Source of the DNA: Gammaproteobacteria bacterium
Lineage (GTDB): Bacteria; Pseudomonadota; Gammaproteobacteria; Steroidobacterales; PWYM01
Reading direction: 5' to 3'
DNA: 64,000 nt
NCBI GenBank assembly: GCA_003567475.1
Contig: PWZL01000102.1
Coordinates: forward strand, 3,132-67,131
Position numbers and translations under genes: made by a program. The notes below the pieces were generated by a model. It saw nothing but the letters and a program-made list of their open reading frames with translations. It had not been told where the DNA came from and did not search any database. Position 1 is the first letter of the stretch. The number at the start of each line of letters is the position of its first letter. Of this stretch, positions 15,689 to 64,000 are shown one piece after another.

Positions 15689-17476
15689 TCATGCCCCGGG
15701 CGCGGCATCACAGCCCACCGCGGCGGCACAGTGCGCCAGCAGTTCGCGATGACGGTGCAGATTGGCGGTCCGGTCGCTGCGCACTTCGATCACCGTGGAG
15801 GCCTCCGACGCCAGCGCCTCGGCCAGCGCGGCGCGGAACGCCGCGCGGGTGGCCGGCGCGCTGCAGGCGAGGCCGAAACCGCGGGCAAGCTCGGCCAGCG
15901 CCAACCCGTGCGGCGTGCCGAAACAGCGCTCGAAGGGGTCGCCGATGTCGGCGACCGGCAGGAAGGAGAAGATGCCCCCGCCATCGTTGTTCAGCAGCAC
16001 CACGGTCACCGCAGGCCGCTGCCGGACCAGCAGGGCCAGGGCGTTGAGATCGTGCAGGAAGGCGAGATCACCGCAGACCAGCACCACCCGGCGTCCGCTG
16101 CCGGTGGCGACCCCGCAGGCCGTGGCCAGGGTGCCGTCGATCCCGCTCGCGCCGCGATTGCTGTAGACCGGGACGCAGGCACCGTCCGCGCCAGCGAACA
16201 TGTCCATGTCGCGGACGGGCATGCTCGCAGCGAGACACAAGACAGCATCCGCGGGCAGACCGCGCGAAACCAGCCGGCAGGCCGCGGGTTCATCAAGCGC
16301 TCCCGGCCCGTCCAGCGCCGCCGCCACGGCCGACCCCAGCCGCGCATCGGCGGCCAGCAGGCGGTGGTGCCAGGCCGAGATCTTCACGGCCGGCGAAGCG
16401 GGCCGTGGCGAAGCGTCGGTCGCCGACGCAGGCACCAGCGCTGCGGCCAGCGTGGCCACCGAGACCTGGAGACGAAGCGTGACGCGGTGCGCGGGGTCGA
16501 GGCGCCGGGGATCATCGGCGACCCGCAGCAGCGGCACGCGCCAGGTCGCGATTCGGCCCAGCAGCCGTTTCGAGACCAGTTCGCCCCCCAGGTGCAGGAT
16601 CGCATCCGGGGTCTCGAGCCCCTCGGCATCGGCCGCGAGCAGCAGGTCGTAGTGGCGCAGCCATGACGCCTTCACCCGGCTGGCCCGCAGACCGGAGGTG
16701 ATGTCGGCACACACCGGCCAGCCGAGCCCAGCGGCCAGCTGTTCGGCGGCCACGCGCTCGGCGTCGTCGCGCAGCCGACCGATGACCATGAGACCGCGCT
16801 GCACCCCCTCGAGCGCCTGCCGGAACGCCTGCAGCGCGTCCGCGGAAAGCGCATGCGCCGGTGGCTGGTAGTCGGTATAGGGCTTGTCTGGTGTCGGCCA
16901 GAGCGGCGGCGGCGTGGCCGTGGGCGCCCCGGCCGCGATCAGCGGTTCCCGGAACGGCACGTTGATCTGGACGGGACCCGGCAGGGGATGGCGGCCACAA
17001 TAGACGGCCCGGTCCAGCGTGGTCAGCAGCGCCTCCGCCGGATAGTCCTCGGCGGGGACCGGCAGGTCGACACTGAAGCGGGCGTGGCTGCCGAACAGTC
17101 CCACCTGGTCGATGGTCTGATTGGCGCCGGTGTCGCGGAGCTCGGGCGGGCGGTCCGCAGTGAGCAGCAGCAGCGGGACACCAGCCATCGCGGCCTCGAC
17201 GACCGCCGGGTACAGATTGGCGACTGCACTGCCGGAGGTACAGATCACCGCCACGGTGGCGCCGCTGCCGCGGGCCAGCCCGAGCGCATGGAACGCCAGG
17301 GCGCGCTCGTCGAAGTGCACCGTACAGGCCAGCGCGGGATGGCCGGCAGCGGCGAGGGTCAGGGGTGTCGAACGCGATCCGGGGGCAAGACAGACGTGGC
17401 GAACACCGAGCCGGACCAGTTCTTCAATGATCAGGACGGCCCAGCGGCCGTTCAGCGCTGCCGTGGCCGCACTCAT
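15689..17476 (-). CDS. menD: SEPHCHC synthase (ThDP-dependent)
   Basis: N-terminus NGRWAVLIIEELVRLGVRHVCLAPGSRSTPL. ThDP motif GDLAFLHDLNALALL...VVLLNNDGGGIF. ATGA overlap with the menF stop. Confidence 0.95.
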   Translation of the reverse strand: MSAATAALNGRWAVLIIEELVRLGVRHVCLAPGSRSTPLTLAAAGHPALACTVHFDERALAFHALGLARGSGATVAVICTSGSAVANLYPAVVEAAMAGVPLLLLTADRPPELRDTGANQTIDQVGLFGSHARFSVDLPVPAEDYPAEALLTTLDRAVYCGRHPLPGPVQINVPFREPLIAAGAPTATPPPLWPTPDKPYTDYQPPAHALSADALQAFRQALEGVQRGLMVIGRLRDDAERVAAEQLAAGLGWPVCADITSGLRASRVKASWLRHYDLLLAADAEGLETPDAILHLGGELVSKRLLGRIATWRVPLLRVADDPRRLDPAHRVTLRLQVSVATLAAALVPASATDASPRPASPAVKISAWHHRLLAADARLGSAVAAALDGPGALDEPAACRLVSRGLPADAVLCLAASMPVRDMDMFAGADGACVPVYSNRGASGIDGTLATACGVATGSGRRVVLVCGDLAFLHDLNALALLVRQRPAVTVVLLNNDGGGIFSFLPVADIGDPFERCFGTPHGLALAELARGFGLACSAPATRAAFRAALAEALASEASTVIEVRSDRTANLHRHRELLAHCAAAVGCDAAPGA

Positions 17477-50076: not shown

Positions 50077-51870
50077 ATGTCACCCACAGCATTCAGACCA
50101 GCCGCCGAACACGATGCCTCGCCCCTCGCGCGCCAGCGACGCCTCCCCCTGGCCCCGCTGGTGCTGCTGGCACTCGCTCTGTTCTCACTCGGTGCGGATG
50201 CCAGTATTCGGGTACAGCTGACAGGCGTGGAAGGCGAAGCCGCCGCCAACGTGCGGGCCTGGCTGGACCTTGTCCGATTCGCCGAACGCGAGGATCTGTC
50301 GGAGACCGCTGTCCGACGCCTGCACGATCGCGCCCCGCGCCAGATCCGCCAGGCGCTGCGGCCTTTCGGCTACTACGACGCCAGGGTGGTCTCACGCAGC
50401 CTCACTCGCGAAGGCAACCAGTGGATCGCGCGATTTGAGATTGCGCCAGGGGAACCGGTGCGGCTGAGCTCGGTACGCCTGGAGGTGATCGGCGAAGGGC
50501 GCGACCATCCGGGATTCAGGACACTGCTGGCTGAATCGCCGCTGGTTGAGGGCAGGCCGCTGCGCCACCCGGACTTCGATCAGCTGCGCGCCCGCCTGGA
50601 GCGAGCGGCAAACACCTACGGCTTCTTCGACCGCCGCTTCCCCGAGCGACGACTGGAAGTCGACCCTGCAGCGCTGTCGGCCAGCGCCGTGCTGGTGATG
50701 GACACCGGCCCGCGCTACCGCTTCGGCGAGGTGTCGATCGACCAGGACATCCTCAATGAGGCGCTGATCGACCGCCTGGTGTTCACCCGCGAGGGCGAGC
50801 CGTTCGACAACGAACGGCTGCTGCGAACGCAGTACGCGCTGACCGACAGCCAGTACTTCGCCAACGTGGTCGTCGAGACCGGCGAGCGGAATCAGGCGAC
50901 CCGCTCGGTTCCCGTGAACATCGAGACCGTGGCGTCGCGGCGCCAACGGATCCGGCTCGGCCTGGGTTACGGCACCGATACCCGGGCCCGCGGCAGCGTC
51001 GGCTGGGACTGGCGGCGTATCAACCGGCGCGGCCACCGTGCCAACATGCAATTGCAGCTCTCTCAGCCGCTCGCGGAGCTGACCACCCAGTACATCGTCC
51101 CTTTTGGCGATCCCTTGCGCGAGCGCCTGTCCTTTCGCAGCACCCTGGCGTCAGAAGATCTGGCGGACGTGCGCAGCCAGCGGGCAACCATTGGCGTCAA
51201 CCATCGACGCGTACTTGGCAACTGGCAGCGCAACCTGTTCGCCGATGTGGTGGATGAACGCACCCGCCTGCCCGACGGAGAACGCTTTGCCGACACCCTG
51301 GTGGTGCCGGGGATCGGCTTCGAACGCTTGATCGCTGACGATCCGCTGGTGCCGACCGAGGGCCATCGGTTGCGGGCCGAGCTGCGCGGCTCGCACGGGC
51401 TGCTGGCCGCCAAGACCGACTTTCTGCGTCTCAATGTAGGCGTGAGCCGCATCCTCTCGCCGAGCGACGACTGGCGCCTGGCGCTGCGCGCGGAGCTCGG
51501 ACTGGGGATCGTCGACGGCTTCGGTGAGCTCCCGGCATCCCAACGATTTTTCGCGGGGGGTGATCAGAGTGTGCGCGGCTACGGCTTCAACCGACTCGGT
51601 CCGACCGATGAAGAAGGCCGGAGCATAGGGGGTCGCCACCTGGTCTTCGGCAGCGTCGAGGTCCAGCGACGCATCAACGGCCCCTGGAACGTTGCCGCCT
51701 TTGTCGACAGCGGTGGCGCCCTGGACCGCCTCGATGACAGCCCGGCGGTCTCGGTCGGCCTGGGTCTGCACTACCTCACACCGATCGGCAGGATCCGCGT
51801 GGAAGTGGCCCAGTCGATCACCGAGAGCCGCTCACCCCGACTCCACATCAGCATCAGGCCGGACCTGTGA
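50077..51870 (+). CDS. tamA: Translocation and assembly module outer-membrane protein TamA (Omp85 family)
   Basis: POTRA-like N-terminus and Omp85 barrel with RFFAGGDQSVRGY. About 600 aa, directly followed by tamB. Confidence 0.85.
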   Translation: MSPTAFRPAAEHDASPLARQRRLPLAPLVLLALALFSLGADASIRVQLTGVEGEAAANVRAWLDLVRFAEREDLSETAVRRLHDRAPRQIRQALRPFGYYDARVVSRSLTREGNQWIARFEIAPGEPVRLSSVRLEVIGEGRDHPGFRTLLAESPLVEGRPLRHPDFDQLRARLERAANTYGFFDRRFPERRLEVDPAALSASAVLVMDTGPRYRFGEVSIDQDILNEALIDRLVFTREGEPFDNERLLRTQYALTDSQYFANVVVETGERNQATRSVPVNIETVASRRQRIRLGLGYGTDTRARGSVGWDWRRINRRGHRANMQLQLSQPLAELTTQYIVPFGDPLRERLSFRSTLASEDLADVRSQRATIGVNHRRVLGNWQRNLFADVVDERTRLPDGERFADTLVVPGIGFERLIADDPLVPTEGHRLRAELRGSHGLLAAKTDFLRLNVGVSRILSPSDDWRLALRAELGLGIVDGFGELPASQRFFAGGDQSVRGYGFNRLGPTDEEGRSIGGRHLVFGSVEVQRRINGPWNVAAFVDSGGALDRLDDSPAVSVGLGLHYLTPIGRIRVEVAQSITESRSPRLHISIRPDL

Positions 51871-54800
51871 TCCTCCTGCGCCGGTTACTTGTCTGGTCTC
51901 TGCCGGTGTTGCTGGTCGCTCTGAGCGCAGTGCTGGCCTGGCTGCTCAGCACCGAGGCGGGGCTGCGCTTCGCCGTGGCACGCCTCACCGCACTCGACGC
52001 GGTGCCCGTTCGAATCGAGTCCGCACAAGGGCGTCTCGCCGGGCCGCTCACGCTCGAAGGCCTGCGGGTGGAACTCGATGCCGTCGAAGTGGATATCCCC
52101 GCCCTGGCGCTGGACTGGCGACCCTGGCGGCTGCTGTATAGGCGCGAGATCCGCGTGCTGGCACTCGCCATCGAATCGCCTACGGTCACCCTGCGCGACG
52201 ACCACGATCCACCGCCGGCGCCCCTTCCTGACGAAGGTGAGGGCTGGCCGGCATCGGTTGAGCTGCCCGTGCGCGTCGAGCTCGACCAGCTGAGCGTGCG
52301 TGACGGTCGACTGTTCACGGGCGATACGCGCGTGCTCGAGGCGCTGTCGCTGGATCTCGCCGCCGGCTGGCGGGGCCAGCGGGTATCGCTGCGCGAACTG
52401 ACGCTCGAGCTGCGCAGTGGGGAGCTTTGGGCCCGGCTCGACGCCGAGGGCCGGCTTGCGACCGCGTTCGCCGACGCCCAGTCGCTGGACCTGAACTGGC
52501 AGCTTCAGCTCCCCGAGGCCACCCGGGCGCTCACGGGCACCACCCAACTGCGCGGCCCGCTCGCGGACCTGGCAGTCGAGCAGAGGTTCGACGGGCTGGT
52601 CGAAGGGCGGATGGCCGGCCAGTTCCAGGGCCTGCCGGACACCCCCGCGTGGTCACTGCAGCTGACCCTGGCACCGCTCGCCCCTGACGGGGGGCTTTGG
52701 CCGGAAACGCTGGACGGGACCCGCGCCGAACTGGTGTTGCGAGGCGAGGTGGCCCGCAGCCGGCTGCAGGGCTCGGTGGCCGTGCCGGGCTGGATCGCAG
52801 GTCCGATGGCTATCGATCTCATCGCCGGGTGGCAGGATGGGCTGGCGCGGGTCGAGACCGCACGCGTGGAGACCGCTGAAGGCGGCGTGCTGCGAGCCCG
52901 CGGCGAGGTGGCGCCTGGCGAGGCGCTTGCGGCGCGGCTGGTTCTGGAAGCCGACAATCTCGGCTGGCCGCTCGACGGCAGTCCGCGCCAGTTCGACCTC
53001 GAGCGGCTGGCCGTCGAGGCCCACGGCGCGGCTCAGGCCTACGATTTCACGCTGGCGGCGCGCGGGCATGCGGGCGAGCTGCCGTCAGTCGACCTGGCAG
53101 TGGAAGGTCGGCTGCGGGAGCGCACCCTCTGGCTCGATCGACTGGCGGCCGATGACGCAGAGGGCCAGGTGCGTCTGCGCGGCAACGCGCGGGCGCTGCT
53201 GGATGCGGATGCGCTGACCTGGACGGCGACCCTGGACGCCGCGGCGCAGCTGCCGGCGCAACCGCCGCTGACCCTCGACCTCGAAGCCCGCGGCGACGCC
53301 GGGCACGCGGAGTTCAGCCGGCTGCGGCTGTCCCTGCTGGATGGCAGCGCCGAGGGTGGCGGACGCGTGGCCTGGGCTGAAGGGGCGGATATGGATTTCA
53401 CCCTGGCCTTTCGCGAGATCGATCCCGGCAGCCACTACCCCGGCTGGTCCGGGCGGCTGGCGGCCGCGCTGGCGTTACGCGGCCAGCTCGGCGCAGACGC
53501 CGATCTGGTCGTTGAACTCACCCCCATCGAGGGCCGCCTGCGCAATCGCGATGTTGACGGCGAGGCTCGCATAGCGCTGCGCGGAGACACCTTGCGGATC
53601 GACACGCTGCGGTTGGCAGTCGGCGGCGCGCAGGTCACCGCCGGGGGTGAGCTTGGCGAGACCTTCGATCTCGGGTTCTCGCTGAATGCCGACAACCTCA
53701 ACGACCTGATGCCTGGCGCCGGCGGGCGGGTCGCACTGACCGGTCGGCTGGGGGGGTCACAGGATCTGCCCGCACTGGCGCTGGATCTCGAGGCGGCGGG
53801 CTTACGCTACGCGCAGTGGTTTCTCGGTACGCTCGCTGCAGACCTCGCGCTCGACCTTGACGACGCCAACCGTTCGACGGTGGCCATCCGGCTGACCGAA
53901 CTGCGCAGCGAGGAGACCCTCGTCGATGTCCTCAGCCTCGACGGCGCGGGGACACCGGGAAGTCATGGGGTCAATCTTGACGCCCGCCGCGGCGACTCGA
54001 GCCTGGTGCTGGAGATCGATGGCGGACTCGACCAGACCGCCGGCCAGTGGGCGGCGCGGCTGGACGACCTGACGCTGGTGCTGGCAGAAGAAATTGTCTG
54101 GGCACTCCAGACGCCCAGTGAGCTCGTGCTTGGCCGGAACGCCGGTCGGGTGGACACCACCTGTATGGACGGCACCCTTGGCCGGGTGTGTCTGGGCGGC
54201 GACTGGCGAGGCGGAGCCGCGTGGCGTGGCGAGCTCGGCGTCTCGGCACTGGACCTCGAAGGGCTCACCCGCTGGCTGGGCAACGGTCTGGTGGCCACGG
54301 GTAGGGTCGCGGGCAATATTGTCGTGGATGCCGACGAGGACGGGTTTGCCAGCCTGGGCGGCGGCCTGGCCGCGAACGATGGGGTACTGTTTCTTGCAGA
54401 ACGGCCTGATGAAGACCTGCTGGGCTGGGCCTCGGCCGCGGTATCGCTGCGCGGTGACCGCGAGGAGGCACGCGGCCGCGTGACCGTGGCACTGGCTGGC
54501 GATGACCTCGTCGAGGGCGAGTTCACCGTGGGCTGGAACGATCCGGACCTGCCGCTGCAGGCGAACCTCGCCGCGGAACTTGGGCAGCTCGCACTCGTTG
54601 CCGAGCTGCTGCCAGACCTCGCGGGGCTGGAGGGCAGCCTGTCAGCACGCATGGATATCGACGGTAGCCTGCGGGCACCGGTCGCCCGCGGCGAGCTGAG
54701 CTGGCGCGACGGGGCCGCGCAGGTCCCCGCGCTGGGGATCGCCCCGCGCGAGATCAACGCCCGGGTTGACCTGGCGCCCGATGATCTGCGCTTCGAGCTG

Positions 54801-55802
54801 AGCGCGCTGACCGGCGAGGGACGGCTTGAAAGCCAGGGTCAGTTCAGCTTCGTCGAAGGATTTGCGGGCATGGCCAGCCTGAGTGGCCGGGAACTCCTGA
54901 TGGTGGACCTGCCAGAGGCCCGGGTGCTCGCGAGCCCGGAGATCGGCCTGACCTTCCGGGACAACCATCTGCAGGTCAACGGTACGGTGGATATCCCGGT
55001 CGCACGCGTCACCGGGCTGGTTCAGGGCACCGGTGCGATCTCTGAAAGTCCGGACACGATGATCGTTGGCGAACGGGGCCGTGAGGCCGAACAGCTCACG
55101 GTCGGCTACGCCGTGCGGGTGAACGTCGGGCCGGAGGTCAGTCTCGACGTGGCCGGGTTGCGCGGGCGCGTGGAGGGCAGCCTGCTGGCGCTGCAGGGCG
55201 ACGATGGTGTGGCCACCGGACGAGGCGAGCTGCGGGTGGTGGACGGCAGCTTCGGCGCGTTCGGCCAGCGACTGACGATCGAACAGGGCCGTCTGCTGTT
55301 CACGGGCGGCGCGATCGATAACCCCGGACTCGATATCCGTGCGGTGCGGCAGGTGGACGACATCACGGCGGGCGCGCTGGTGCGCGGCACGCTGTCCGAA
55401 CCGGAGATCAGCGTGTTCTCCGATCCCCCCATGCCGCGGGCCGAGGCACTGTCCTACCTGACCATCGGCAAGAGCATCAACGAACTCGACAGCGGTGAGC
55501 AGGCCAGCCTCAACAGTGCCGCCAACTCGCTGGCCCTCTCGGGCGGCAATCTCCTGGCACGCGAGATCGGCGGGCGTCTGGGCTTCGACGAGGTCGGCGT
55601 TGCCGCCGGTGCAGAACCCGGCTCGGCATCTCTGGTGGTGGGCAAGTACCTCGGGCCGCGATTGTTCGTCAGCTACGGTGTCGGCCTGTTCGATGCGGTC
55701 AACGAACTGCGGTTACGCTACCGGCTCAGCAACCGCTGGACGCTCGAGGCCGCCTCGGGCGAGCAGTCATCGGCGGATGTGGTGTTTACCGTCGAACGCT
55801 GA
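51867..55802 (+). CDS. tamB: Translocation and assembly module protein TamB (DUF490)
   Basis: N-terminal anchor helix, about 1300 aa, C-terminal DUF490-like GKYLGPRLFVSYGVGLFDAVNELRLRYRLSNRWTLEA. GTGA overlap with the tamA stop. Confidence 0.85.
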   Translation: MILLRRLLVWSLPVLLVALSAVLAWLLSTEAGLRFAVARLTALDAVPVRIESAQGRLAGPLTLEGLRVELDAVEVDIPALALDWRPWRLLYRREIRVLALAIESPTVTLRDDHDPPPAPLPDEGEGWPASVELPVRVELDQLSVRDGRLFTGDTRVLEALSLDLAAGWRGQRVSLRELTLELRSGELWARLDAEGRLATAFADAQSLDLNWQLQLPEATRALTGTTQLRGPLADLAVEQRFDGLVEGRMAGQFQGLPDTPAWSLQLTLAPLAPDGGLWPETLDGTRAELVLRGEVARSRLQGSVAVPGWIAGPMAIDLIAGWQDGLARVETARVETAEGGVLRARGEVAPGEALAARLVLEADNLGWPLDGSPRQFDLERLAVEAHGAAQAYDFTLAARGHAGELPSVDLAVEGRLRERTLWLDRLAADDAEGQVRLRGNARALLDADALTWTATLDAAAQLPAQPPLTLDLEARGDAGHAEFSRLRLSLLDGSAEGGGRVAWAEGADMDFTLAFREIDPGSHYPGWSGRLAAALALRGQLGADADLVVELTPIEGRLRNRDVDGEARIALRGDTLRIDTLRLAVGGAQVTAGGELGETFDLGFSLNADNLNDLMPGAGGRVALTGRLGGSQDLPALALDLEAAGLRYAQWFLGTLAADLALDLDDANRSTVAIRLTELRSEETLVDVLSLDGAGTPGSHGVNLDARRGDSSLVLEIDGGLDQTAGQWAARLDDLTLVLAEEIVWALQTPSELVLGRNAGRVDTTCMDGTLGRVCLGGDWRGGAAWRGELGVSALDLEGLTRWLGNGLVATGRVAGNIVVDADEDGFASLGGGLAANDGVLFLAERPDEDLLGWASAAVSLRGDREEARGRVTVALAGDDLVEGEFTVGWNDPDLPLQANLAAELGQLALVAELLPDLAGLEGSLSARMDIDGSLRAPVARGELSWRDGAAQVPALGIAPREINARVDLAPDDLRFELSALTGEGRLESQGQFSFVEGFAGMASLSGRELLMVDLPEARVLASPEIGLTFRDNHLQVNGTVDIPVARVTGLVQGTGAISESPDTMIVGERGREAEQLTVGYAVRVNVGPEVSLDVAGLRGRVEGSLLALQGDDGVATGRGELRVVDGSFGAFGQRLTIEQGRLLFTGGAIDNPGLDIRAVRQVDDITAGALVRGTLSEPEISVFSDPPMPRAEALSYLTIGKSINELDSGEQASLNSAANSLALSGGNLLAREIGGRLGFDEVGVAAGAEPGSASLVVGKYLGPRLFVSYGVGLFDAVNELRLRYRLSNRWTLEAASGEQSSADVVFTVER

Positions 55803-56621: not shown

Positions 56622-57287
56622 TCAGCCCAGCACCCGGGCCAGCCAGTTGGCGATGGCGCGGACTTCTTCCAGGCACACCTGATGTCCCATCGGATAAGCC
56701 CGCCACTCGACGGCGTAGCCAAGCTGCTGGAGCAGGTCGCGCGAGTGTTCACCGAGCGACACATGCAGGACCGGGTCGGCCGACCCGTGGGCCATGAAGA
56801 CCGGCACGGCGGTGCTTCCGGACGCCCGTTCGTGCTGAAACGCCTGCTCCAGCGGCAGGTAGGTCGACAGTGCCATCACACCCGCCAGCGGCTCTCGCCG
56901 CCGCAGCCCGGCATACAGGGCGATCGCACCGCCCTGCGAGAAGCCGGCGAGCACGATCCGCTCAGCCGCGATCCCCCGAGCGATCTCGCGCGCGATCAGT
57001 GCCTCGACCTGGTCGGCACTCTGGCGAATGCCCACCTCGTCCTGCAGCGCGCGCCGGTCCAGCCCGGTGATGTCGTACCAGGCGCGCATGCGGTAACCCT
57101 GGTTCAGGGAGACCGGGCGTTCCGGCGCGTGCGGAAACACAAACCGCACCGCAAGCTGGAGACCGAGCTCGGGCACAATCGGCTCGAAATCGTGGCCGTC
57201 GGCACCCAGGCCATGCAGCCAGATCACCGCGCGCTCCGGCGACGGCCCGGTCTCGACCTCGACGGTCGGCAGCACTTCCGTGTCACT
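56622..57287 (-). CDS. Carboxylesterase/phospholipase-family alpha/beta hydrolase
   Basis: VIWLHGLGADGHDFEPI, nucleophile elbow GFSQGGAIAL, HGSADPVL, catalytic-His region YPMGHQV. Confidence 0.85.
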   Translation of the reverse strand, partial: SDTEVLPTVEVETGPSPERAVIWLHGLGADGHDFEPIVPELGLQLAVRFVFPHAPERPVSLNQGYRMRAWYDITGLDRRALQDEVGIRQSADQVEALIAREIARGIAAERIVLAGFSQGGAIALYAGLRRREPLAGVMALSTYLPLEQAFQHERASGSTAVPVFMAHGSADPVLHVSLGEHSRDLLQQLGYAVEWRAYPMGHQVCLEEVRAIANWLARVLG

Positions 57288-57373
57288 CATGTCCTGATCT
57301 CCTTGCTGACCGACGGGCTGACGCACATCGCAACCCGACGCGGCCGATGAGGCCGCGAGCGCAGCGATATTAA

Positions 57374-57430
57374 CGTGAATCAGGATTGCATACTCATGCG
57401 CATCAGTTTATTCTTATGCGCAATTATAGA
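57374..57430. promoter_or_regulatory. ARG-box-like operator repeats upstream of argR
   Basis: AT-rich. TGAAT-CAGG-ATTGCA (57376-57390). Two related 14-mers, TGCATACTCATGCG (57387-57400) and TTTATTCTTATGCG (57407-57420), lie exactly 20 bp apart. Confidence 0.35.
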
Positions 57431-57442
57431 GACTCTGCACCC

Positions 57443-57907
57443 ATGCCAGCCCAAGCCGAACACCAGGCCCGCCGCCGCGAGGCCATCGCCGCAATCATTG
57501 CCTCTCAGGCCGTCACCCGGCAGGCCGAACTCGTCGCTCTGTTGCAGGCCGCCGGAATCGAAGCGACGCAGTCCAGCGTCAGCCGGGATCTGCGTGACAT
57601 GGGCGTCATCAAGCAGAAAACCGGTTACGCCCTGCCACAGGCGAGCGCCGCGGCCGAAGCGGATTTCGATTCGGTGGCCGGTTTCGTGCGCGCGCTGCGC
57701 CCGGCGGGGCCGAACCTCACCATCGTGATCACGGCGGTGGGCGCCGCGCAGCGCGTGGCCCTGTCGCTCGATCGCAGCGGCTGGCCGGAGATCGCCGGCA
57801 CGCTTTCCGGCGACGACACGATCTTCGTGGCGACCGCCGACCGTGCCCGACAGAAACTGCTGCTGGCACGGCTCAACGCCGTGTTCGGCATTCGCCCCTC
57901 ACCCTGA
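57443..57907 (+). CDS. argR: Arginine repressor
   Basis: RREAIAAIIASQAVTRQAELVALLQAAGIEATQSSVSRDLRDMGVIK winged helix. C-terminal GTLSGDDTIFV oligomerisation/arginine-binding motif. Confidence 0.85.
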   Translation: MPAQAEHQARRREAIAAIIASQAVTRQAELVALLQAAGIEATQSSVSRDLRDMGVIKQKTGYALPQASAAAEADFDSVAGFVRALRPAGPNLTIVITAVGAAQRVALSLDRSGWPEIAGTLSGDDTIFVATADRARQKLLLARLNAVFGIRPSP

Positions 57908-57927
57908 CCTCGAAGGATTTGCGTTTC

Positions 57928-59142
57928 ATGGCCGACACCGACAGCCCTATCGTGCTCGCCTTCTCCGGCGGTCTCGACACCTCCATGTGTATCCCCTGGC
58001 TGGCCGAACGCCATCAGCGCCCGGTGGTCACCGTGACCGTCAATACCGGTGGCCTGGCTGCCGAAGACATCCGGCGGCTGGAGGAACGCTCACGCGCCCT
58101 CGGCGCCCGCAAGCATCTGCTGGTCGAGGCCCGCGAGGCCTTCTTCGACGAAGTGCTGCGCCACCTGATCTTCGGTAACGTCCGCCGTGGCCAGCTCTAC
58201 CCGCTGTGCGTCGGCGCCGAGCGCGGCATCCAGGCCTCCCGGCTGGCGCAGGCGGCACGCACACTGGGCTCCACTACGGTGGCCCACGGTTGCACCGCGG
58301 CCGGCAATGACCAGGTCCGCTTCGAAGTCGCGCTGAAGACGCTCGACCCCGCCCTCGAGATCCTCGCACCCGTGCGCGATGAGGGGTTTGTCCGCGTCGA
58401 GCAGGTCCGCTATCTGGAGGACCGCGGGCTACCGGTGCCGGCCAAGAGCTCAGCTTACTCCATCAACCGAGGTCTCTGGGGCGTGACCATTGGCGGCACC
58501 GAGACGCTGGATTCGCGCGAGAGTATCCCCGAAGACGCCTGGGTCCTCTCGGCAGGCGCCTTCGAGGCAAACCGCCCCCCCCGCCAGCTGGTCATCGGCT
58601 TCGAAGCCGGCATCCCGGTCAGCCTCGACGGTGAGCGCCTCACGCCCGTGGCGCTGATCGAGCGCCTTGAGCAGATTGGCGCGGACTACGCCATCGGTCG
58701 TGGCATCCATCTGGGTGACACCATCCTCGGCACCAAGGGCAGGGTGGCCTTCGAGGCCCCGGCCGCCGAGCTGCTGATCACCGCCCATCGCGAACTCGAG
58801 AAACTCGTGCTCTCCGCGCTGCAGCAACGCGTGAAAGAGCAGGTGGCGACGATCTACGGTGACCTGGTGCATGAGGGCAAGCAGCTCGACCTCGTGTGCG
58901 CGGATATCGAGGCCCTGCTCAGCTCCTCACAGCGCAGGGTGACGGGCGAGGCGCACCTGCTGCTGCGCCCGGGCGGGGTGTTTGTCGAAGGCGTGGTCTC
59001 GCCGCATTCGTTGCTCAAGGCCACCCGTGGCGTCTACGGCGAAGCCGCCGGCGAATGGACACCGGCCGACGCTCTGGGCTATTCGCGGGTGCTCAGCCTG
59101 CCCGGCATCCTGCAAACCCGCGCCGGCAGCCACCCCACATGA
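57928..59142 (+). CDS. argG: Argininosuccinate synthase
   Basis: IVLAFSGGLDTS ATP-binding motif, VAHGCTAAGNDQVRFE. AAGGA Shine-Dalgarno sequence 10 nt before the ATG at 57928. Confidence 0.95.
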   Translation: MADTDSPIVLAFSGGLDTSMCIPWLAERHQRPVVTVTVNTGGLAAEDIRRLEERSRALGARKHLLVEAREAFFDEVLRHLIFGNVRRGQLYPLCVGAERGIQASRLAQAARTLGSTTVAHGCTAAGNDQVRFEVALKTLDPALEILAPVRDEGFVRVEQVRYLEDRGLPVPAKSSAYSINRGLWGVTIGGTETLDSRESIPEDAWVLSAGAFEANRPPRQLVIGFEAGIPVSLDGERLTPVALIERLEQIGADYAIGRGIHLGDTILGTKGRVAFEAPAAELLITAHRELEKLVLSALQQRVKEQVATIYGDLVHEGKQLDLVCADIEALLSSSQRRVTGEAHLLLRPGGVFVEGVVSPHSLLKATRGVYGEAAGEWTPADALGYSRVLSLPGILQTRAGSHPT

Positions 59143-59162
59143 GCGCGCGGGAGGATTCCAGC

Positions 59163-60242
59163 ATGCGTACCGTCATCGTCGACAAGATCGCCTCGGTCGC
59201 CCATCACCTCAACCTCTCACGCGAAATACGCGTGAGTGACCGCATTCCCTGTGAAGAGGGGGTGCTGGTCGCCGTCGAGGTGCTGAACTCCAAGAGCACC
59301 TATAACACGCTCGAACTCACCAGCGGGCGGATGGCGAAGCTCCGCCGCGGTGATGTCATCGTCGGCGCGCTCGGCCACCGCAAGGCGTTGTTCGGGTATT
59401 CGGGACACCTGCCGACAACGCTTGTCCCCGGTGATGTCGTGCAGATTCTCAACCTTGGCGGGGTACTGGGTCTGTGCGATTCCGCCAACCCTGATTACGG
59501 CCGGCCGTTCGACTGCCGTGTGCTGGGCACCGTGCTGCATTTCCCCTACCTGGGCGAGCGTATCGGGGTGCCCGCGCGCATGGGCATCGGCAAGCTCGCC
59601 GAGGCGCCCCCGCTGGAGACACACGGCATTCCGATCGTGGCACTTGCCGGCACCAGCATGGACGCCGGCAAGACGGCGGCCGCCTCGGCGATCATCGGAC
59701 GCTTCCGCCACTACGGCCTGGTGGTCGACGGCTTCAAGGCCACGGGGGTGGCCTTGCGCCGCGACGTGCTGGCCATGGAGGATGCCGGCGCGCGCAATAC
59801 CCTGCTGTTCTCCGACTTCGGCATCGTCGCCACCACGGCGGCCAACGGCCCCGCCCTGACGCGCACCTTGCTCACCCGCCTGGCCGGCGAGAAACCTGAT
59901 GTCATCGTCTTCGAACTCGGCGACGGACTGCTCGGCGCCTATGGTGTCGATGCCATCCTGCGCGACCCGGCCATCCGCAAGGCCCTGACCTGCACGGTGC
60001 TCTGCGCCAACGACCCCGTGGCCGCCTGGGGCGGGGTGAAGCTGTTGCGTGAGGAGTTCGACATCGAGCCGGCGGTGGTCACCGGCCCGGCCACCGACAA
60101 CCAGGTGGGCATCGACATCATTCGCGATCGCCTCGGAGTCGCCGCCGTCAACGCGCTGGCCAATGGCGCGGAGCTCGGCGATCTCCTGCAGACACGGCTC
60201 GGCCTGCCGATCCGCCGCAGCAATGAGGAGGCATTGGCGTGA
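59163..60242 (+). CDS. Uncharacterised arg-operon protein: beta-rich N-domain + DUF1611/BioD-like P-loop-type domain
   Basis: GGGAGGA Shine-Dalgarno sequence 8 nt before the ATG at 59163. Its stop forms a GTGA overlap with the argC start. Motifs IVALAGTSMDAGKTAAA, GFKATGVAL and VIVFELGDGLLG resemble DUF1611 (GTDCxVGK..., ATGQTG, FVEGQG). Balanced composition, unlike the Arg-rich antisense frame. Confidence 0.8.
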   Translation: MRTVIVDKIASVAHHLNLSREIRVSDRIPCEEGVLVAVEVLNSKSTYNTLELTSGRMAKLRRGDVIVGALGHRKALFGYSGHLPTTLVPGDVVQILNLGGVLGLCDSANPDYGRPFDCRVLGTVLHFPYLGERIGVPARMGIGKLAEAPPLETHGIPIVALAGTSMDAGKTAAASAIIGRFRHYGLVVDGFKATGVALRRDVLAMEDAGARNTLLFSDFGIVATTAANGPALTRTLLTRLAGEKPDVIVFELGDGLLGAYGVDAILRDPAIRKALTCTVLCANDPVAAWGGVKLLREEFDIEPAVVTGPATDNQVGIDIIRDRLGVAAVNALANGAELGDLLQTRLGLPIRRSNEEALA

Positions 60243-61300
60243 ACGAGACCTGGCCCGTGACCGTCCTCGGTGCGACCGGCTATGTCGCCGGCGAGCTGTT
60301 GCGCCTGGTGGCCGGTCACCCCCATCTCGATCTCGCGGCGGCGGTCTCCGAGAGTCAGGCTGGCGCGCCGATTGCCGAGACTTTCGGCCACCTCGCACCG
60401 CTGTATCGCGACACGCGCTTCAGCGCGCCGGAGAGTCTTGCGGAACTGCTGGCGGTGGTGCCGCGCATGGCCGTGTTCTGCGCAGCGCCTCACGGGGCCG
60501 CGGCGACGATGATCGACCAGCTGCTGGCCACGGCCGCGCAGGTCGATACCGACGTTCGCCTGGTCGATGTGTCCGCCGACTTCCGCTTCCGCGACCCCGA
60601 GACCTACGCCGACATCTACGGCCACCCGCATGGTGCGCCCCACCGACTGGCGGAGTTCGCCAGCGGGCTGCCCGAGCACCTCGAGGGCGTGCCGGCGAGA
60701 CACATCGGCCACCCTGGATGCTTTGCCACCGCCATGCTGCTCGCCGCCGTGCCGCTGGTGAAGCTCGGGCTGGTCGAGGACGACCTGTTTGTCGCCGCCA
60801 TCACTGGGTCCACGGGCTCCGGGCGCACACCGCTGGCCACCACCCACCATCCCGTGCGCCACGCCAACCTGTATGCCTACTCACCACTGGGCCACCGGCA
60901 TGCACCGGAGGTCACCGGGCTGATCGAAGCGGTTACCGGTCATCGGCCCCGCCTGCACTTCGTGCCTCATTCGGGACCGTTTGCCCGGGGGATCCAGGCC
61001 ACGCTGCAGGCACGCCTGCGTGAACCCGTGCCCGTGAGCGAACTGCGCGATGCGCTGCGCCGCTTCTATGTGGCCTCGCCCTTTGTCAGCGTGGTCGAGG
61101 GGACGCCGAAACTGAAAGACGTGGTGGGCAGCAACTATGCCCAGCTCGGCGTCGCCACCGATGGCGACACCGTGGCCGTATTCTCGGTCATCGACAATCT
61201 GCTCAAGGGCGCCGCGGGCGGCAGTCTCCAGTGGCTGAATCGCATGCTGGGCTGGCCCGAACACACCGGCCTGACCGCGTCGGGTGCCGGCTGGACCTGA
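60239..61300 (+). CDS. argC: N-acetyl-gamma-glutamyl-phosphate reductase
   Basis: VTVLGATGYVAGELLRLV and active-site GHPGCFATA. Confidence 0.95.
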   Translation: MNETWPVTVLGATGYVAGELLRLVAGHPHLDLAAAVSESQAGAPIAETFGHLAPLYRDTRFSAPESLAELLAVVPRMAVFCAAPHGAAATMIDQLLATAAQVDTDVRLVDVSADFRFRDPETYADIYGHPHGAPHRLAEFASGLPEHLEGVPARHIGHPGCFATAMLLAAVPLVKLGLVEDDLFVAAITGSTGSGRTPLATTHHPVRHANLYAYSPLGHRHAPEVTGLIEAVTGHRPRLHFVPHSGPFARGIQATLQARLREPVPVSELRDALRRFYVASPFVSVVEGTPKLKDVVGSNYAQLGVATDGDTVAVFSVIDNLLKGAAGGSLQWLNRMLGWPEHTGLTASGAGWT

Positions 61301-61345: not shown

Positions 61346-62506
61346 ATGCATGCCCTCACCGCCATCGCCCGCGAAGCCGAGCACCTGTTGCCGGTCTACG
61401 CTCAGCTCGACATCGAACCGGTCCGCGCCGAGGGCGTCTGGATCCACACGGCCGACGGGCGACAGATCCTGGATGTCTATGGCGGCCATGCCGTCACCGC
61501 CCTCGGCTACGGCCACCCGCGGCTGCTTGACACGCTGGCCCACCAGGCCGCAACGCTGCTGTTCCAGAGCAATGCGGTGGCGCTGGATGTCCGCGCCCGG
61601 GCCGCGCGCCGGCTTGCCGGATTCATGCCCGCCGGTCTCAGCCACGTCTTTTTCGTCAACTCCGGCGCCGAGGCCAACGAGAATGCCCTGCGCCTGGCCC
61701 TGAAGGCCACCGGCCGGCCGCGGGTCGTCGCGCTCGAACACGGCTTCCACGGCCGCACCGCCGCGGCGGCCGCGGCGACCTGGGGGGCGGAGAAGTGGTA
61801 TGGCTTCCCGCAGCGACCGTTCGAGCCGGTATTTGTCCCGCGGGATGACCCTGCAGCGCTGCGCGCGGCGGTCGACGAACGCACCGCCGCCGTGATCCTC
61901 GAGCCGGTGCAGGGTGTCGCCGGCGCCTATGACCTGCCCCTGGCGGTGCTGCGTGCAGCCCGGGAGGCCTGTGACTCGGCCGGCGCCTGGCTGATCAGCG
62001 ACGAGGTCCAGAGTGGCATGGGGCGCAGCGGCATGGCGCTGGCGATCAGCCGCGCCGGCGTCACGCCGGATGTCGCCACACTGGCCAAGTCGCTCGGCGG
62101 CGGCTTCCCGGTGGGCGCGCTGGTGACGCGGGCCGGCGTGGCCGACGGGCTGCAGGTCGGTGACCTCGGCACCACCTTCGGCGGCGGGCCGCTGGCCTGC
62201 GCCATCGTCGAGACGGTGCTCGCCGTGATCGAGGAGGCCGGCCTGCTCGCGCGGATCGGTGTGCTGGAACGCGTCATCCGCGAACACTGCCAGGTCGGTC
62301 CGGTGACCGCGGTGCAGGGCGCCGGCCTGCTGCTCGGCCTGCGCACCAGCCGACCCGCACGCGAAGTCAACCGCGAGCTCCTGGCCCGCAACATCCTGGC
62401 CGGTGGCAGCGCCGATCCGCACATCGTGCGGCTGCTGCCGCCCTACATTCTCGAAGAAGACCACGTCCTGCGGCTGGCCGCCGCCCTGGAGGAGATATCC
62501 GCATGA
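61346..62506 (+). CDS. argD: Acetylornithine aminotransferase (class III PLP enzyme)
   Basis: DVYGGHAVTALGYGHP, FFVNSGAEANENALRLA, ISDEVQSGMGRSG, TLAKSLGGGFPVGA (the Lys is the PLP site). Confidence 0.9.
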   Translation: MHALTAIAREAEHLLPVYAQLDIEPVRAEGVWIHTADGRQILDVYGGHAVTALGYGHPRLLDTLAHQAATLLFQSNAVALDVRARAARRLAGFMPAGLSHVFFVNSGAEANENALRLALKATGRPRVVALEHGFHGRTAAAAAATWGAEKWYGFPQRPFEPVFVPRDDPAALRAAVDERTAAVILEPVQGVAGAYDLPLAVLRAAREACDSAGAWLISDEVQSGMGRSGMALAISRAGVTPDVATLAKSLGGGFPVGALVTRAGVADGLQVGDLGTTFGGGPLACAIVETVLAVIEEAGLLARIGVLERVIREHCQVGPVTAVQGAGLLLGLRTSRPAREVNRELLARNILAGGSADPHIVRLLPPYILEEDHVLRLAAALEEISA

Positions 62507-63507
62507 AGCTGTTCAACGACCTCGCCGATTTCAGCGTCGAGGAGATCGACGATCTGCTGACACTCGCCCGCCGGCTCGACGAGCATCCCGAACCCCAGGC
62601 GCTGGCCGGTCGCGTGCTGGCGCTGCTGTTCCTGAACCCCTCGTTGCGCACCATGTCCTCCTTCCAGGCTGCCATGATCCGACTGGGGGGCAGCGCCTTC
62701 GTGATCTCCCCGGAGATGTCGATTCACGGTCTAGAGACCCGGCCGGGCATCGTGATGGACGGTGCCGCCGCAGAACATATTCGCGAGGCGGTCCCGGTCA
62801 TCGCCTCTTACGGCGACGCGATCGGCATTCGTGCCTTCGCTCAGCGCCAGCGCCTGGAGGATGACCTCGCAGACAGCGAATTCCAGACCTTCCGCTCGCT
62901 GATCGACAAGCCGATGATCAACATGGAGTCGGCCATCAACCATCCCTGCCAGGCGCTGGCCGACTGGAAGACCATGGACGAGCTCGGCGTGCCGCGCCAG
63001 GGCGGCAAGTTCGTGCTCTCCTGGGCCTATCACCCGAAGGCGTTGCCGCTGGCCGTACCGTCGGCCGTGGTGCACATGGCCTGCCAGCGGGGCATGGACG
63101 TGACAGTCCTGCGCCCCGAGGGTTTCGAGCTGCCCACGCCGATCATGGACAAGGCGCGCGCGGCCGCCGAGGCCAATGGCGGCAGCCTGCAGGAATCGGC
63201 CGACCGCCACGAGGCCATCGAGGGCGCCCACGTGGTGTACGCCAAGGAGTGGTCATCGACCCGGCACTACGGTGATCGCCTGGGCGACGAGAAGCTTCGT
63301 CGCGAACTGGTCGACTGGTGCATCGACGACCCTTGGTTCCAGCCGGCCCGCGAGGACTGCCGACTGATGCATTGCCTGCCGGTGCGCCGCGGCGTGGCGG
63401 TCAGTGACCGGGTGCTCGATGGCCCGCGCAGTGTGGTCATCCAGGAAGCCCGCAATCGCATGGTCGCGCAGATGGCAGTGGTATACCGCATGCTGCGCGG
63501 CAGCTGA
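62503..63507 (+). CDS. argF': N-acetylornithine (AOTCase-type) carbamoyltransferase
   Basis: Collinear with Xanthomonas AOTCase as I recall it: FLNPSLRTMSSF, GIVMDGAAAEHI, INMES..HPCQALAD, VLSWAYHPK, VVYAKEW, HCLPVRR. Lacks the canonical OTCase STRTR and DxxxSMG motifs. ATGA overlap with the argD stop. Confidence 0.8.
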   Translation: MKLFNDLADFSVEEIDDLLTLARRLDEHPEPQALAGRVLALLFLNPSLRTMSSFQAAMIRLGGSAFVISPEMSIHGLETRPGIVMDGAAAEHIREAVPVIASYGDAIGIRAFAQRQRLEDDLADSEFQTFRSLIDKPMINMESAINHPCQALADWKTMDELGVPRQGGKFVLSWAYHPKALPLAVPSAVVHMACQRGMDVTVLRPEGFELPTPIMDKARAAAEANGGSLQESADRHEAIEGAHVVYAKEWSSTRHYGDRLGDEKLRRELVDWCIDDPWFQPAREDCRLMHCLPVRRGVAVSDRVLDGPRSVVIQEARNRMVAQMAVVYRMLRGS

Positions 63508-63535: not shown

Positions 63536-64000
63536 ATGAGAGACAATCAGGAACGCGCGATCGTCGTCAGCGCACTGAAACATGCGGCACCTTACATCCG
63601 CATGTACAAGGGCAAGGTCTTCGTGCTCAAGGCAGGCGGTGAGGTCTTCGCGACACCGGAGGACACCCACGCACTGATGACCCAGGTCGGGCTGCTGCAC
63701 CAGGTGGGCATCCGTGTGGTGCTGGTCCACGGTGGGGGCCCTCAGTCCACCGAGCTTGCGAAATCCCTCGGGCTGGCGACCCAGTTCGTCGAGGGTCGTC
63801 GGGTGACCGATCAGCCGGCGCTGGAAGTCGCCACCATGGTGCTGAACGGCCTGATCAATACGCGTATTCTGGCCGCCTGCCGCGATCTCGATGTGCCTGC
63901 AGTCGGCATCTCCGGGGTCGATGCCGGCCTCATCCGCGCGCATAAACGCCCGCCCGTGAAAGTCGAGGGCAACGAGGCACCGGTGGACTACGGTTTCGTC
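63536..64000 (+). CDS. argB: Acetylglutamate kinase, N-terminal part (runs off the window)
   Basis: My translation from ATG 63536: MRDNQERAIVVSALKHAAPYIRMYKGKVFVLKAGGEVF...VVLVHGGGPQ...GRRVTD, open to position 64000. Confidence 0.9.
   Translation, partial: MRDNQERAIVVSALKHAAPYIRMYKGKVFVLKAGGEVFATPEDTHALMTQVGLLHQVGIRVVLVHGGGPQSTELAKSLGLATQFVEGRRVTDQPALEVATMVLNGLINTRILAACRDLDVPAVGISGVDAGLIRAHKRPPVKVEGNEAPVDYGFV

Follow-up and report, generated by a model that had tools for sequence, protein, structure and literature searches.

Introduction

Many bacteria contain no recognizable enzyme for step 1 of arginine synthesis, in which an N-protecting acyl group is attached to L-glutamate. Minimal medium supports growth of Steroidobacter denitrificans, in which neither a recognizable ArgA nor a recognizable ArgE is found (10.1101/2024.10.14.618325). 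In the GapMind 2026 preprint, ACG33_RS14135 (UniProt A0A127FCT3), a hypothetical protein encoded within the arg cluster of S. denitrificans, is predicted to be an alternative N-succinylglutamate synthase (10.1101/2024.10.14.618325). Its homologues are nearly always found in arg operons and never alongside the Pseudomonas-type ArgA, and the ArgF' proteins encoded beside them have a succinyl-type residue (10.1101/2024.10.14.618325). The protein also gave a weak Foldseek match (E=1.4e-7, with a root mean square deviation of 5.6 Å) to DgcN (PDB 7XRJ), which is described in the same preprint as a glutamate N-acetyltransferase that acts on D-glutamate (10.1101/2024.10.14.618325). DgcN depends on acetyl-coenzyme A (acetyl-CoA). 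Here we describe a comparable gene, referred to as gene X, in a 64,000-nucleotide stretch of DNA from an uncultured gammaproteobacterium (assembly GCA_003567475.1, contig PWZL01000102.1, positions 3,132 to 67,131, forward strand; hereafter the window), where it lies between argG and argC.

Our comparative genomic analyses suggest, with a probability of roughly 0.65-0.7 over all possible mechanisms, that gene X makes the N-acyl-glutamate of step 1. This idea is already a published prediction for the gene X family (10.1101/2024.10.14.618325). The analyses reported here add an independent confirmation, a wider survey and a sharper mechanistic question.

Results

Gene X and Its Family

Gene X (59163-60242, + strand) runs from an ATG at 59163 to a TGA at 60240-60242 and encodes a protein of 359 amino acids (aa), a predicted N-acyl (probably N-succinyl)-L-glutamate synthase. 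Its ATG is separated from the argG stop codon (TGA, 59140-59142) by 20 nt and follows, at a distance of 7 nt, the Shine-Dalgarno sequence GGGAGGA (59149-59155, + strand), which was identified by reading the sequence. Its stop codon and the GTG start codon of argC (60239-60241) overlap as GTGA. A preliminary description of the window had reported this open reading frame (ORF), its own strong Shine-Dalgarno sequence and its overlap with argC, all of which we find as described. A longer GTG-started frame (from 58896) is also present in the list of ORFs. Because all 24 of the 24 aligned homologues start at the same methionine, we regard 59163 as the true start. The three C-terminal motifs that had been pointed out earlier were all located in the translation, GTSMDAGKT at residues 163-171, FKATGVAL at residues 191-198 and VFELGDGLLG at residues 249-258.

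At least 7,739 homologues of gene X were found at E<=1e-3 in a large protein collection (8,000 candidates), the best 120 of which are 71-95% identical to the window protein. Given that homologues are this numerous (~7,739) and that many are 70-95% identical, gene X is a genuine gene rather than a chance ORF. When representatives at 50% identity were searched exhaustively with HMMER, 1,456 clusters scored E<=1e-3 and 208 scored E<=1e-30; full-length family members extend down to ~28% identity. Where named, the homologues are all "hypothetical protein," and none has a precomputed Pfam domain; the protein of gene X itself had no match in Pfam (E<=0.01), NCBIfam or PDB sequences. A protein identical to that of the window is recorded from gammaproteobacterial metagenome-assembled genomes (MAGs), and the nearest genome relatives are MAGs labelled Gammaproteobacteria, Steroidobacteraceae, Woeseiaceae, Chromatiales and Nevskiaceae.

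Gene X and ACG33_RS14135 almost certainly belong to the same family, which we judge from operon position and Steroidobacteraceae homologues rather than from a direct alignment. In every Steroidobacteraceae locus fetched, gene X was the only non-arg gene in the cluster and was 70-73% identical to the window protein, which is the basis of this assignment. The window also has the hallmarks of the ACG33_RS14135 family, a hypothetical gene between argG and argC and an ArgF' with a residue other than Glu (A/P/S/V/T/I) at position 92.

Conservation of the Gene Neighborhood

We surveyed 160 loci, of which 80 were from genomes and 80 from metagenomes; the latter, for which the search query consisted of five sequences, come from a distant subfamily with ~40% identity to the window protein. 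In essentially all of the 160 loci gene X is found inside arg clusters, and it lies directly upstream of argC in 122 of the 124 loci in which this could be tested. In the genome set, 73 of the 74 loci that could be tested have argC directly after gene X (argC is frameshifted in the remaining one), and 57 of 72 have argG directly before it. The corresponding counts for the metagenome loci are 49/50 for argC and 40/45 for argG. The commonest layout in genomes is argR-argG-X-argC-argD-argF'-argB-argH. About 15 genome loci have X-argC-argB alone, which is the minimal conserved core around gene X.

Conservation of the argG-X-argC arrangement, a check called for in the preliminary description, extends far beyond close relatives, as clustering with arg genes is kept in homologues of just 28-45% identity. 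For instance, a 28%-identical homologue is found in argG-X-argF'-argH, and a 32%-identical homologue in X-argC-kinase with a convergent argD-like gene beside it. The fullest clusters, found in metagenome loci, are argG-X-argC-argD-argF'-argB-M20 deacylase-argH; of the 25 metagenome loci that have 7.5 kb or more of downstream sequence, 13 continue as argB-M20 deacylase-argH. These clusters hold eight genes, and arginine is made from glutamate via N-acylated intermediates in eight steps, of which only the formation of acyl-glutamate is otherwise without a gene. Since no other gene would fit into the 0-192 bp that separate the M20 gene from argH, gene X is the sole gene left for step 1. Clustering of the ORFs from the 80 genome loci, which were called crudely, brought up no other conserved gene as a candidate for an overlooked synthase or deacylase.

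Two contigs of one MAG (MFD02242.bin.2.304; loci L012 and L056) each contain X-argC-argB, and the argC of L012 is in three pieces. The cluster may have been duplicated, with one copy now in decay, or the bin may be mixed or the assembly wrong.

The Specificity Residue of ArgF'

Alignment to the N-acetylornithine carbamoyltransferase of Xanthomonas campestris and to the chains of its E92A, E92S and E92V mutants placed Ala90 of the window ArgF' (62770-62772) at the position of Glu92 of the Xanthomonas enzyme. With Ala, Pro, Ser or Val in place of Glu92, that enzyme changes over to N-succinylornithine (Shi et al. 2007, as cited in 10.1101/2024.10.14.618325). Genome loci have Ala at this position without exception (55 of 55); among the metagenome loci, 19 have Ala, 11 Thr, 4 Val and 2 Ser, and none has Glu. 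Because position 92 is of the succinyl type and never Glu, N-succinyl rather than N-acetyl intermediates are indicated, and the pathway probably runs on them. The preliminary description had proposed an N-acetylglutamate synthase. Its assignment of gene X to the missing step 1 is the best-supported reading of our data as well, while the product, as judged by Ala90 of ArgF', is probably N-succinylglutamate. By the same token, the name N-acetylornithine carbamoyltransferase that model NF003384 gives to this group of ArgF' proteins is probably wrong with regard to the acyl group.

Structure of the Gene X Protein

An AlphaFold model of the gene X protein built from an alignment of 57 diverse homologues had a predicted local distance difference test score (pLDDT) of 96.6 and a predicted TM-score of 0.93; a model from 24 close homologues, in which pLDDT was <50 over the first 138 residues, was discarded. 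In the model retained, residues 1 to ~135 (59163-59567, + strand) form an all-beta domain of ~11 strands, in which S11, G33, R73, P84 and G100 are invariant. The searches with PDB-sequence and Pfam profiles returned no significant match to this domain, the best being domain 2 of EF-G (E=0.006) and GroES (E=0.7), in keeping with the earlier remark that the beta-rich N-terminus resembles nothing recognizable.

Residues 156-359 (59628-60239, + strand) form a P-loop domain of the SIMIBI class that resembles dethiobiotin synthetase (BioD), as indicated by Foldseek, the PDB profile search and hhalign alike; a non-canonical, BioD-like P-loop in this half of the protein had been noted before. Foldseek matched only this domain to PDB structures. 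The top matches were dethiobiotin synthetases (3of5, E=4e-6, TM-score 0.55 normalized by target length), followed by GTPases of the signal recognition particle (SRP) and by HypB, while the DUF1611 structure 2OBN ranked 40th (E=1e-4). The PDB-sequence profile search placed BioD of Mycobacterium tuberculosis first (E=1.5e-4), and hhalign aligned X with Escherichia coli BioD over 118 columns (E=1.8e-4, probability 48%), pairing K170 with K15, T171 with T16, K192 with K37 and E251 with E115. Together with G169, these four residues of X are invariant in the 57 homologues, down to 26% identity. The extended Walker A loop GTSMDAGKT (residues 163-171; 59649-59675, + strand), which contains G169, K170 and T171, aligned to the BioD loop GTDTEVGKT; Lys192 (59736-59738, + strand), in the motif FKATG, is equivalent to BioD Lys37, and Glu251 (59913-59915, + strand), in the motif ELGDG, to BioD Glu115. 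The catalytic constellation of BioD (GxxxxxGKT, K37 and E115) is therefore present in X; the counterpart of Asp54 is uncertain. X had no match to the BioD models Pfam AAA_26 and NCBIfam BioD, and AAA_26 was matched below threshold by 7 of the 57 homologues.

Comparison with DUF1611 Proteins

DUF1611 proteins had been named as relatives of gene X in the preliminary description, which also gave one member, DgcN, as a glutamate N-acetyltransferase; this is essentially right, with the addition that the preprint gives D-glutamate as its substrate (10.1101/2024.10.14.618325). The likeness itself did not hold up as membership, given that X has no Pfam match to the family, an all-beta N-terminus and different signature motifs. 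More specifically, the window protein matched neither DUF1611_C (PF07755) nor DUF1611_N (PF17396) of Pfam. The DUF1611_N domain has a Rossmann-like fold. A motif search of the 2 Mb of fetched DNA found no DUF1611 gene. A motif query for DUF1611 retrieved 7XRJ (DgcN; GTDCSVGKMYT...FRATGQTG), 2OBN (GTDMAIGKMST...FLATGQTG) and 2G0T (GTDCVVGKRTT...FLATGQTG). X, with GTSMDAGKT and FKATGVAL, lacks the DUF1611 signature GTDxxxGK(M/R)xT and F(L/R)ATGQTG; the motif layout that X and DUF1611 do have in common is general among BioD-like proteins. In these three solved structures GKM or GKR stands in place of the GKT of X, and Arg (7XRJ) or Leu (2OBN and 2G0T) in place of its Lys192, a contrast drawn from fragments of just three DUF1611 sequences aligned by eye and hence a lead rather than a proof.

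Sub-threshold Pfam matches in the 57 homologues were to MobB (28), CbiA (27), DUF1611_C (21) and AAA_26 (7). The best of those to DUF1611_C had E=1.3e-5, and the examples inspected covered the P-loop region only (~40 of 201 profile positions). Because these matches are spread over several families, they point to generic SIMIBI-class kinship and not to membership of DUF1611.

Fusions and Homologues Outside arg Clusters

A 626-aa fusion (P0243) of gene X with an amino-acid-kinase domain of the ArgB/ArgA type was found in four independent metagenome samples. This fusion mirrors the kinase-plus-acyltransferase architecture of classical ArgA. In these loci (L081, 6817-9881; also L082-L084) it is divergent from an arginase gene (TIGR01229, 230 bits, cutoff 228). 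An apparent fusion of X with ArgC (P0177) was discounted, as ArgR and ArgG as well as ArgF' and ArgB are merged on the same contig (L086, 6309-13676). The merged ORFs most likely result from frameshift errors of long-read assembly, and database "fusions" of this kind should not be taken as domain fusions.

Distant homologues were also found outside arg clusters. On an archaeal contig (L173, 6984-10725; L174 is identical), a 33%-identical homologue is located 55 bp past a gene for a deacylase of the AstE/AspA family, which showed weak matches to the DoeB, aspartoacylase and succinylglutamate desuccinylase models, and is convergent with two genes for RimK-family alpha-L-glutamate ligases. Genes for a K+ transporter, a Na+/H+ exchanger and an MscS-like protein are in the vicinity, and genes for ribosomal proteins S27e, S24e and S6e, Spt4 and eIF2-gamma surround the locus. 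This set looks like a separate pathway for an N-acyl acidic amino acid or a glutamyl peptide, possibly one that serves an osmolyte. X and RimK are paired once more, independently, in L089 (267-2378), where a 38%-identical homologue (P0165) is divergent from a RimK-family glutamate ligase gene (TIGR00768, 225 bits). The presence of RimK-type ligases and an AstE/AspA-family deacylase beside distant homologues fits chemistry on N-acyl acidic amino acids.

The Arginine Cluster of the Window

Pfam and NCBIfam matches, together with translation, agree with the earlier identification of argG, argC, argD, argF' and argB around gene X. All genes of the cluster are on the + strand. The first is argR (57386-57907), whose product, the arginine repressor, matched Pfam Arg_repressor and Arg_repressor_C and scored 100.6 bits, under the cutoff, with TIGR01529. 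It is followed by argG (57919-59142), encoding argininosuccinate synthase (Pfam Arginosuc_synth and Arginosuc_syn_C; TIGR00032, 286 bits, cutoff 268). Downstream of gene X are argC (60239-61300; TIGR01850, 301 bits, cutoff 234), whose GTG start overlaps the stop of gene X, argD (61346-62506), for an N-acylornithine aminotransferase with Pfam Aminotran_3 and best NCBIfam matches, under the cutoffs, to acetylornithine/succinylornithine transaminase models, and argF' (62503-63507), for an N-acylornithine carbamoyltransferase (NF003384, 325 bits, cutoff 288). The last, argB (63536-64000), encodes an N-acylglutamate kinase, was identified from its translation and is partial, as it crosses the end of the window. 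Its full-length orthologue in L008 has 311 aa and one kinase domain, with argH next to it. The ArgB of the cluster is thus monofunctional (311 aa) rather than a bifunctional synthase/kinase, and is therefore no source of synthase activity. A non-exhaustive scan of 20 further suitably sized ORFs in the window revealed no ArgA, ArgJ, GNAT or M20 protein, although a stretch of 64 kb tells little about the genome as a whole.

A 234-aa ORF (56622-57326, - strand) is divergent from argR, and homologous counterparts lie close to the cluster in 21 of 80 related genome loci; the ORF has no obvious tie to arginine synthesis. Just upstream of the arg region are two large co-directional ORFs of 597 and 1,311 aa (50077-55802), the latter of which opens with a hydrophobic segment like that of a signal anchor. 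They may encode an outer-membrane translocation/assembly pair.

Discussion

Proposed Function of Gene X

The proposal that gene X makes an N-acyl-glutamate leaves the mechanism to be considered separately. Our tentative choice, held at somewhat less than even odds, is an ATP-dependent ligase for N-acyl, most likely succinyl, glutamate. BioD activates a carboxyl-type oxygen with ATP, after which an amine attacks, and this is the chemistry that an amide-forming ligase needs. By analogy, the C-terminal BioD-like P-loop domain of X would bind Mg-ATP, and Lys170, Thr171, Lys192 and Glu251 would serve in phosphorylation of a carboxylate of a free acid, succinate, to an acyl phosphate. Glutamate, which is probably held by the N-terminal beta domain, possibly via the invariant Arg73, would then attack the acyl phosphate with its alpha-amino group to yield N-succinyl-L-glutamate, ADP and phosphate. 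ArgB, ArgC, ArgD and ArgF' would process the product further.

The preference for ATP and a free acid over an acyl-CoA is the weaker of our suggestions and derives from sequence motifs. Given that X keeps both the GKT and the second Lys of the BioD type, which are altered in the three solved DUF1611 proteins, an ATP-dependent ligase is no less likely than an acyl-CoA transferase. Retention of GKT and of the Lys37 equivalent also suggests that a nucleoside triphosphate (NTP) would be bound and used as in BioD, instead of a P-loop that only holds CoA. A CoA-independent, ATP-dependent X, in which free succinate would be turned into an acyl phosphate, or CO2 into a phosphorylated carbamate, while the beta domain presents L-glutamate, is a possibility to which we give about one chance in three. 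It would be a new enzymatic solution to step 1 and would let the organism use again the succinate that the pathway sets free at its end.

Several points weigh against the proposal as a whole or against its parts. In gammaproteobacterial clusters, including those of the relatives of the window, the M20 deacylase step is missing as well, so that the argument of one gene for one gap is not unique there. Nor is gene X strictly the sole candidate for step 1 everywhere, because on one metagenome contig of low GC content (L091) the full cluster comprises gene X, an M20 deacylase and, between the latter and argH, a gene for a 167-aa GNAT (16258-16761). This GNAT resembles, at scores below threshold (NF005840, 103 bits, cutoff 154), the short N-acetylglutamate synthases as well as the C-terminal domain of ArgH(A) fusions. 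This is the only locus with such an extra GNAT among those surveyed, and its ArgF' has Thr at position 92. Succinyl specificity hinges on one residue of ArgF', the similarity between X and BioD is remote (TM-score 0.37-0.55, hhalign probability 48%), and the motif contrast with DUF1611 comes from the three sequences described above. DgcN, the only biochemically characterized glutamate N-acylating enzyme of this fold class, uses acetyl-CoA.

The known N-acylglutamate synthases are, to our knowledge, all acyl-CoA-dependent. In the published reading of this family, X would be a DgcN-like acyl-CoA:L-glutamate N-acyltransferase with succinyl-CoA as donor, in which the P-loop binds the phosphates of CoA and no ATP is consumed. 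The whole genomic context of X fits this reading equally well. So do the preprint's Foldseek match of the Steroidobacter protein to DgcN 7XRJ (10.1101/2024.10.14.618325), the occurrence of 2OBN among the Foldseek matches of X (E=1e-4), the sub-threshold matches to DUF1611_C in 21 of 57 homologues and the layout of GTxxxxGK, ATG and ExGxG that is common to X and DUF1611. We consider it somewhat less likely than an ATP-dependent ligase. DUF1611, at rank 40, is no closer to X by Foldseek than BioD, SRP GTPases or HypB, and the sub-threshold matches to MobB and to CbiA outnumber those to DUF1611. The GKT and the Lys37 equivalent that are invariant in X are both altered in DgcN, 2OBN and 2G0T, and the N-termini differ, being all-beta in X and Rossmann-like in DUF1611.

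X could instead be an accessory, nucleotide-dependent partner of ArgB and ArgC; it might, for example, act in regulation or maturation, or as a scaffold through which the labile acyl-glutamyl phosphate is channeled. A physical partner would suit the X-argC-argB core and the X-kinase fusion of one lineage; many SIMIBI-class P-loop proteins are switches or chaperones, with SRP GTPases and HypB among the Foldseek matches of X, and the L091 cluster has a separate GNAT like a short N-acetylglutamate synthase. This seems improbable to us, as the conserved residues are of the BioD type (equivalents of Lys37 and Glu115) and not the switch or dimerization motifs of MinD, G3E or SRP proteins, as step 1 would be left without a candidate in the eight-gene clusters and in S. 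denitrificans, and as distant homologues occur without argB and argC, beside glutamate ligases and a deacylase. Lastly, X might be an ArgJ-like recycler that transfers the succinyl group from N-succinylcitrulline (or N-succinylornithine) to glutamate, covering both the synthase and the deacylase steps. Gammaproteobacterial clusters that are without either a synthase or an M20 deacylase would be accounted for in this way, as would the lack of a recognizable ArgE in S. denitrificans (10.1101/2024.10.14.618325). However, X is found together with the M20 deacylase in 13 of the 25 metagenome loci with sufficient downstream sequence, group transfer needs no nucleotide while the NTP-binding residues of X are invariant, and X has no similarity to ArgJ; we regard such a role as highly improbable. 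Synthesis of an N-acyl-glutamate by X is the reading that we prefer.

If the gene X family fills step 1, predictions of auxotrophy would change for many Gammaproteobacteria from soil, sediment and soda lakes as well as for other lineages, a new protein family model would be warranted, and ArgF' proteins named "N-acetylornithine carbamoyltransferase" would probably need to be renamed to the succinyl type. If X is also ATP-dependent, it would represent a new enzyme mechanism for step 1 of arginine synthesis.

Comparison with Known Systems

The closest described system is that of ACG33_RS14135, with which gene X shares the cluster argR-argG-X-argC-argD-argF'-argB-argH, the remote similarity to DgcN and a residue other than Glu at position 92 of ArgF'. 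It differs in that the window gene is from an uncultured gammaproteobacterial MAG, and in that the preprint proposes an acyltransferase by analogy to DgcN (10.1101/2024.10.14.618325), whereas the motifs of X point at least equally to ATP-dependent, BioD-like chemistry. DUF1611 proteins and X are of the same broad P-loop class, with the motif layout in common, and the characterized member DgcN is described as acylating the amino group of glutamate (10.1101/2024.10.14.618325). In contrast to X, in which the modeled N-terminus is all-beta, DUF1611 proteins have a Rossmann-like N-terminus, and DgcN acts on D-glutamate in a catabolic context, while X would use L-glutamate in a biosynthetic one.

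BioD is the best match of X by both structure and profile, with the Walker A Lys and Thr, the second Lys and the Glu of the Mg site all conserved. However, the two are just 14-18% identical, and BioD is a single-domain protein of ~225 aa encoded in bio operons, whereas X has 359 aa, an extra domain of ~135 aa and a place in arg clusters. With the known N-acylglutamate synthases, namely ArgA, the short GNAT enzymes, ArgJ and the GNAT-type N-succinylglutamate synthase of Bacteroidetes, X has in common the proposed reaction and the position in the pathway. X is related to none of them in sequence or fold, as neither a GNAT (Acetyltransf_1) nor an ArgJ domain was detected in it by Pfam, NCBIfam or Foldseek. 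Its position in the operon is analogous to that of the Bacteroidetes enzyme, and the fusion of X with a kinase mimics the two-domain layout of classical ArgA, in which a kinase-like domain is joined to a GNAT domain.

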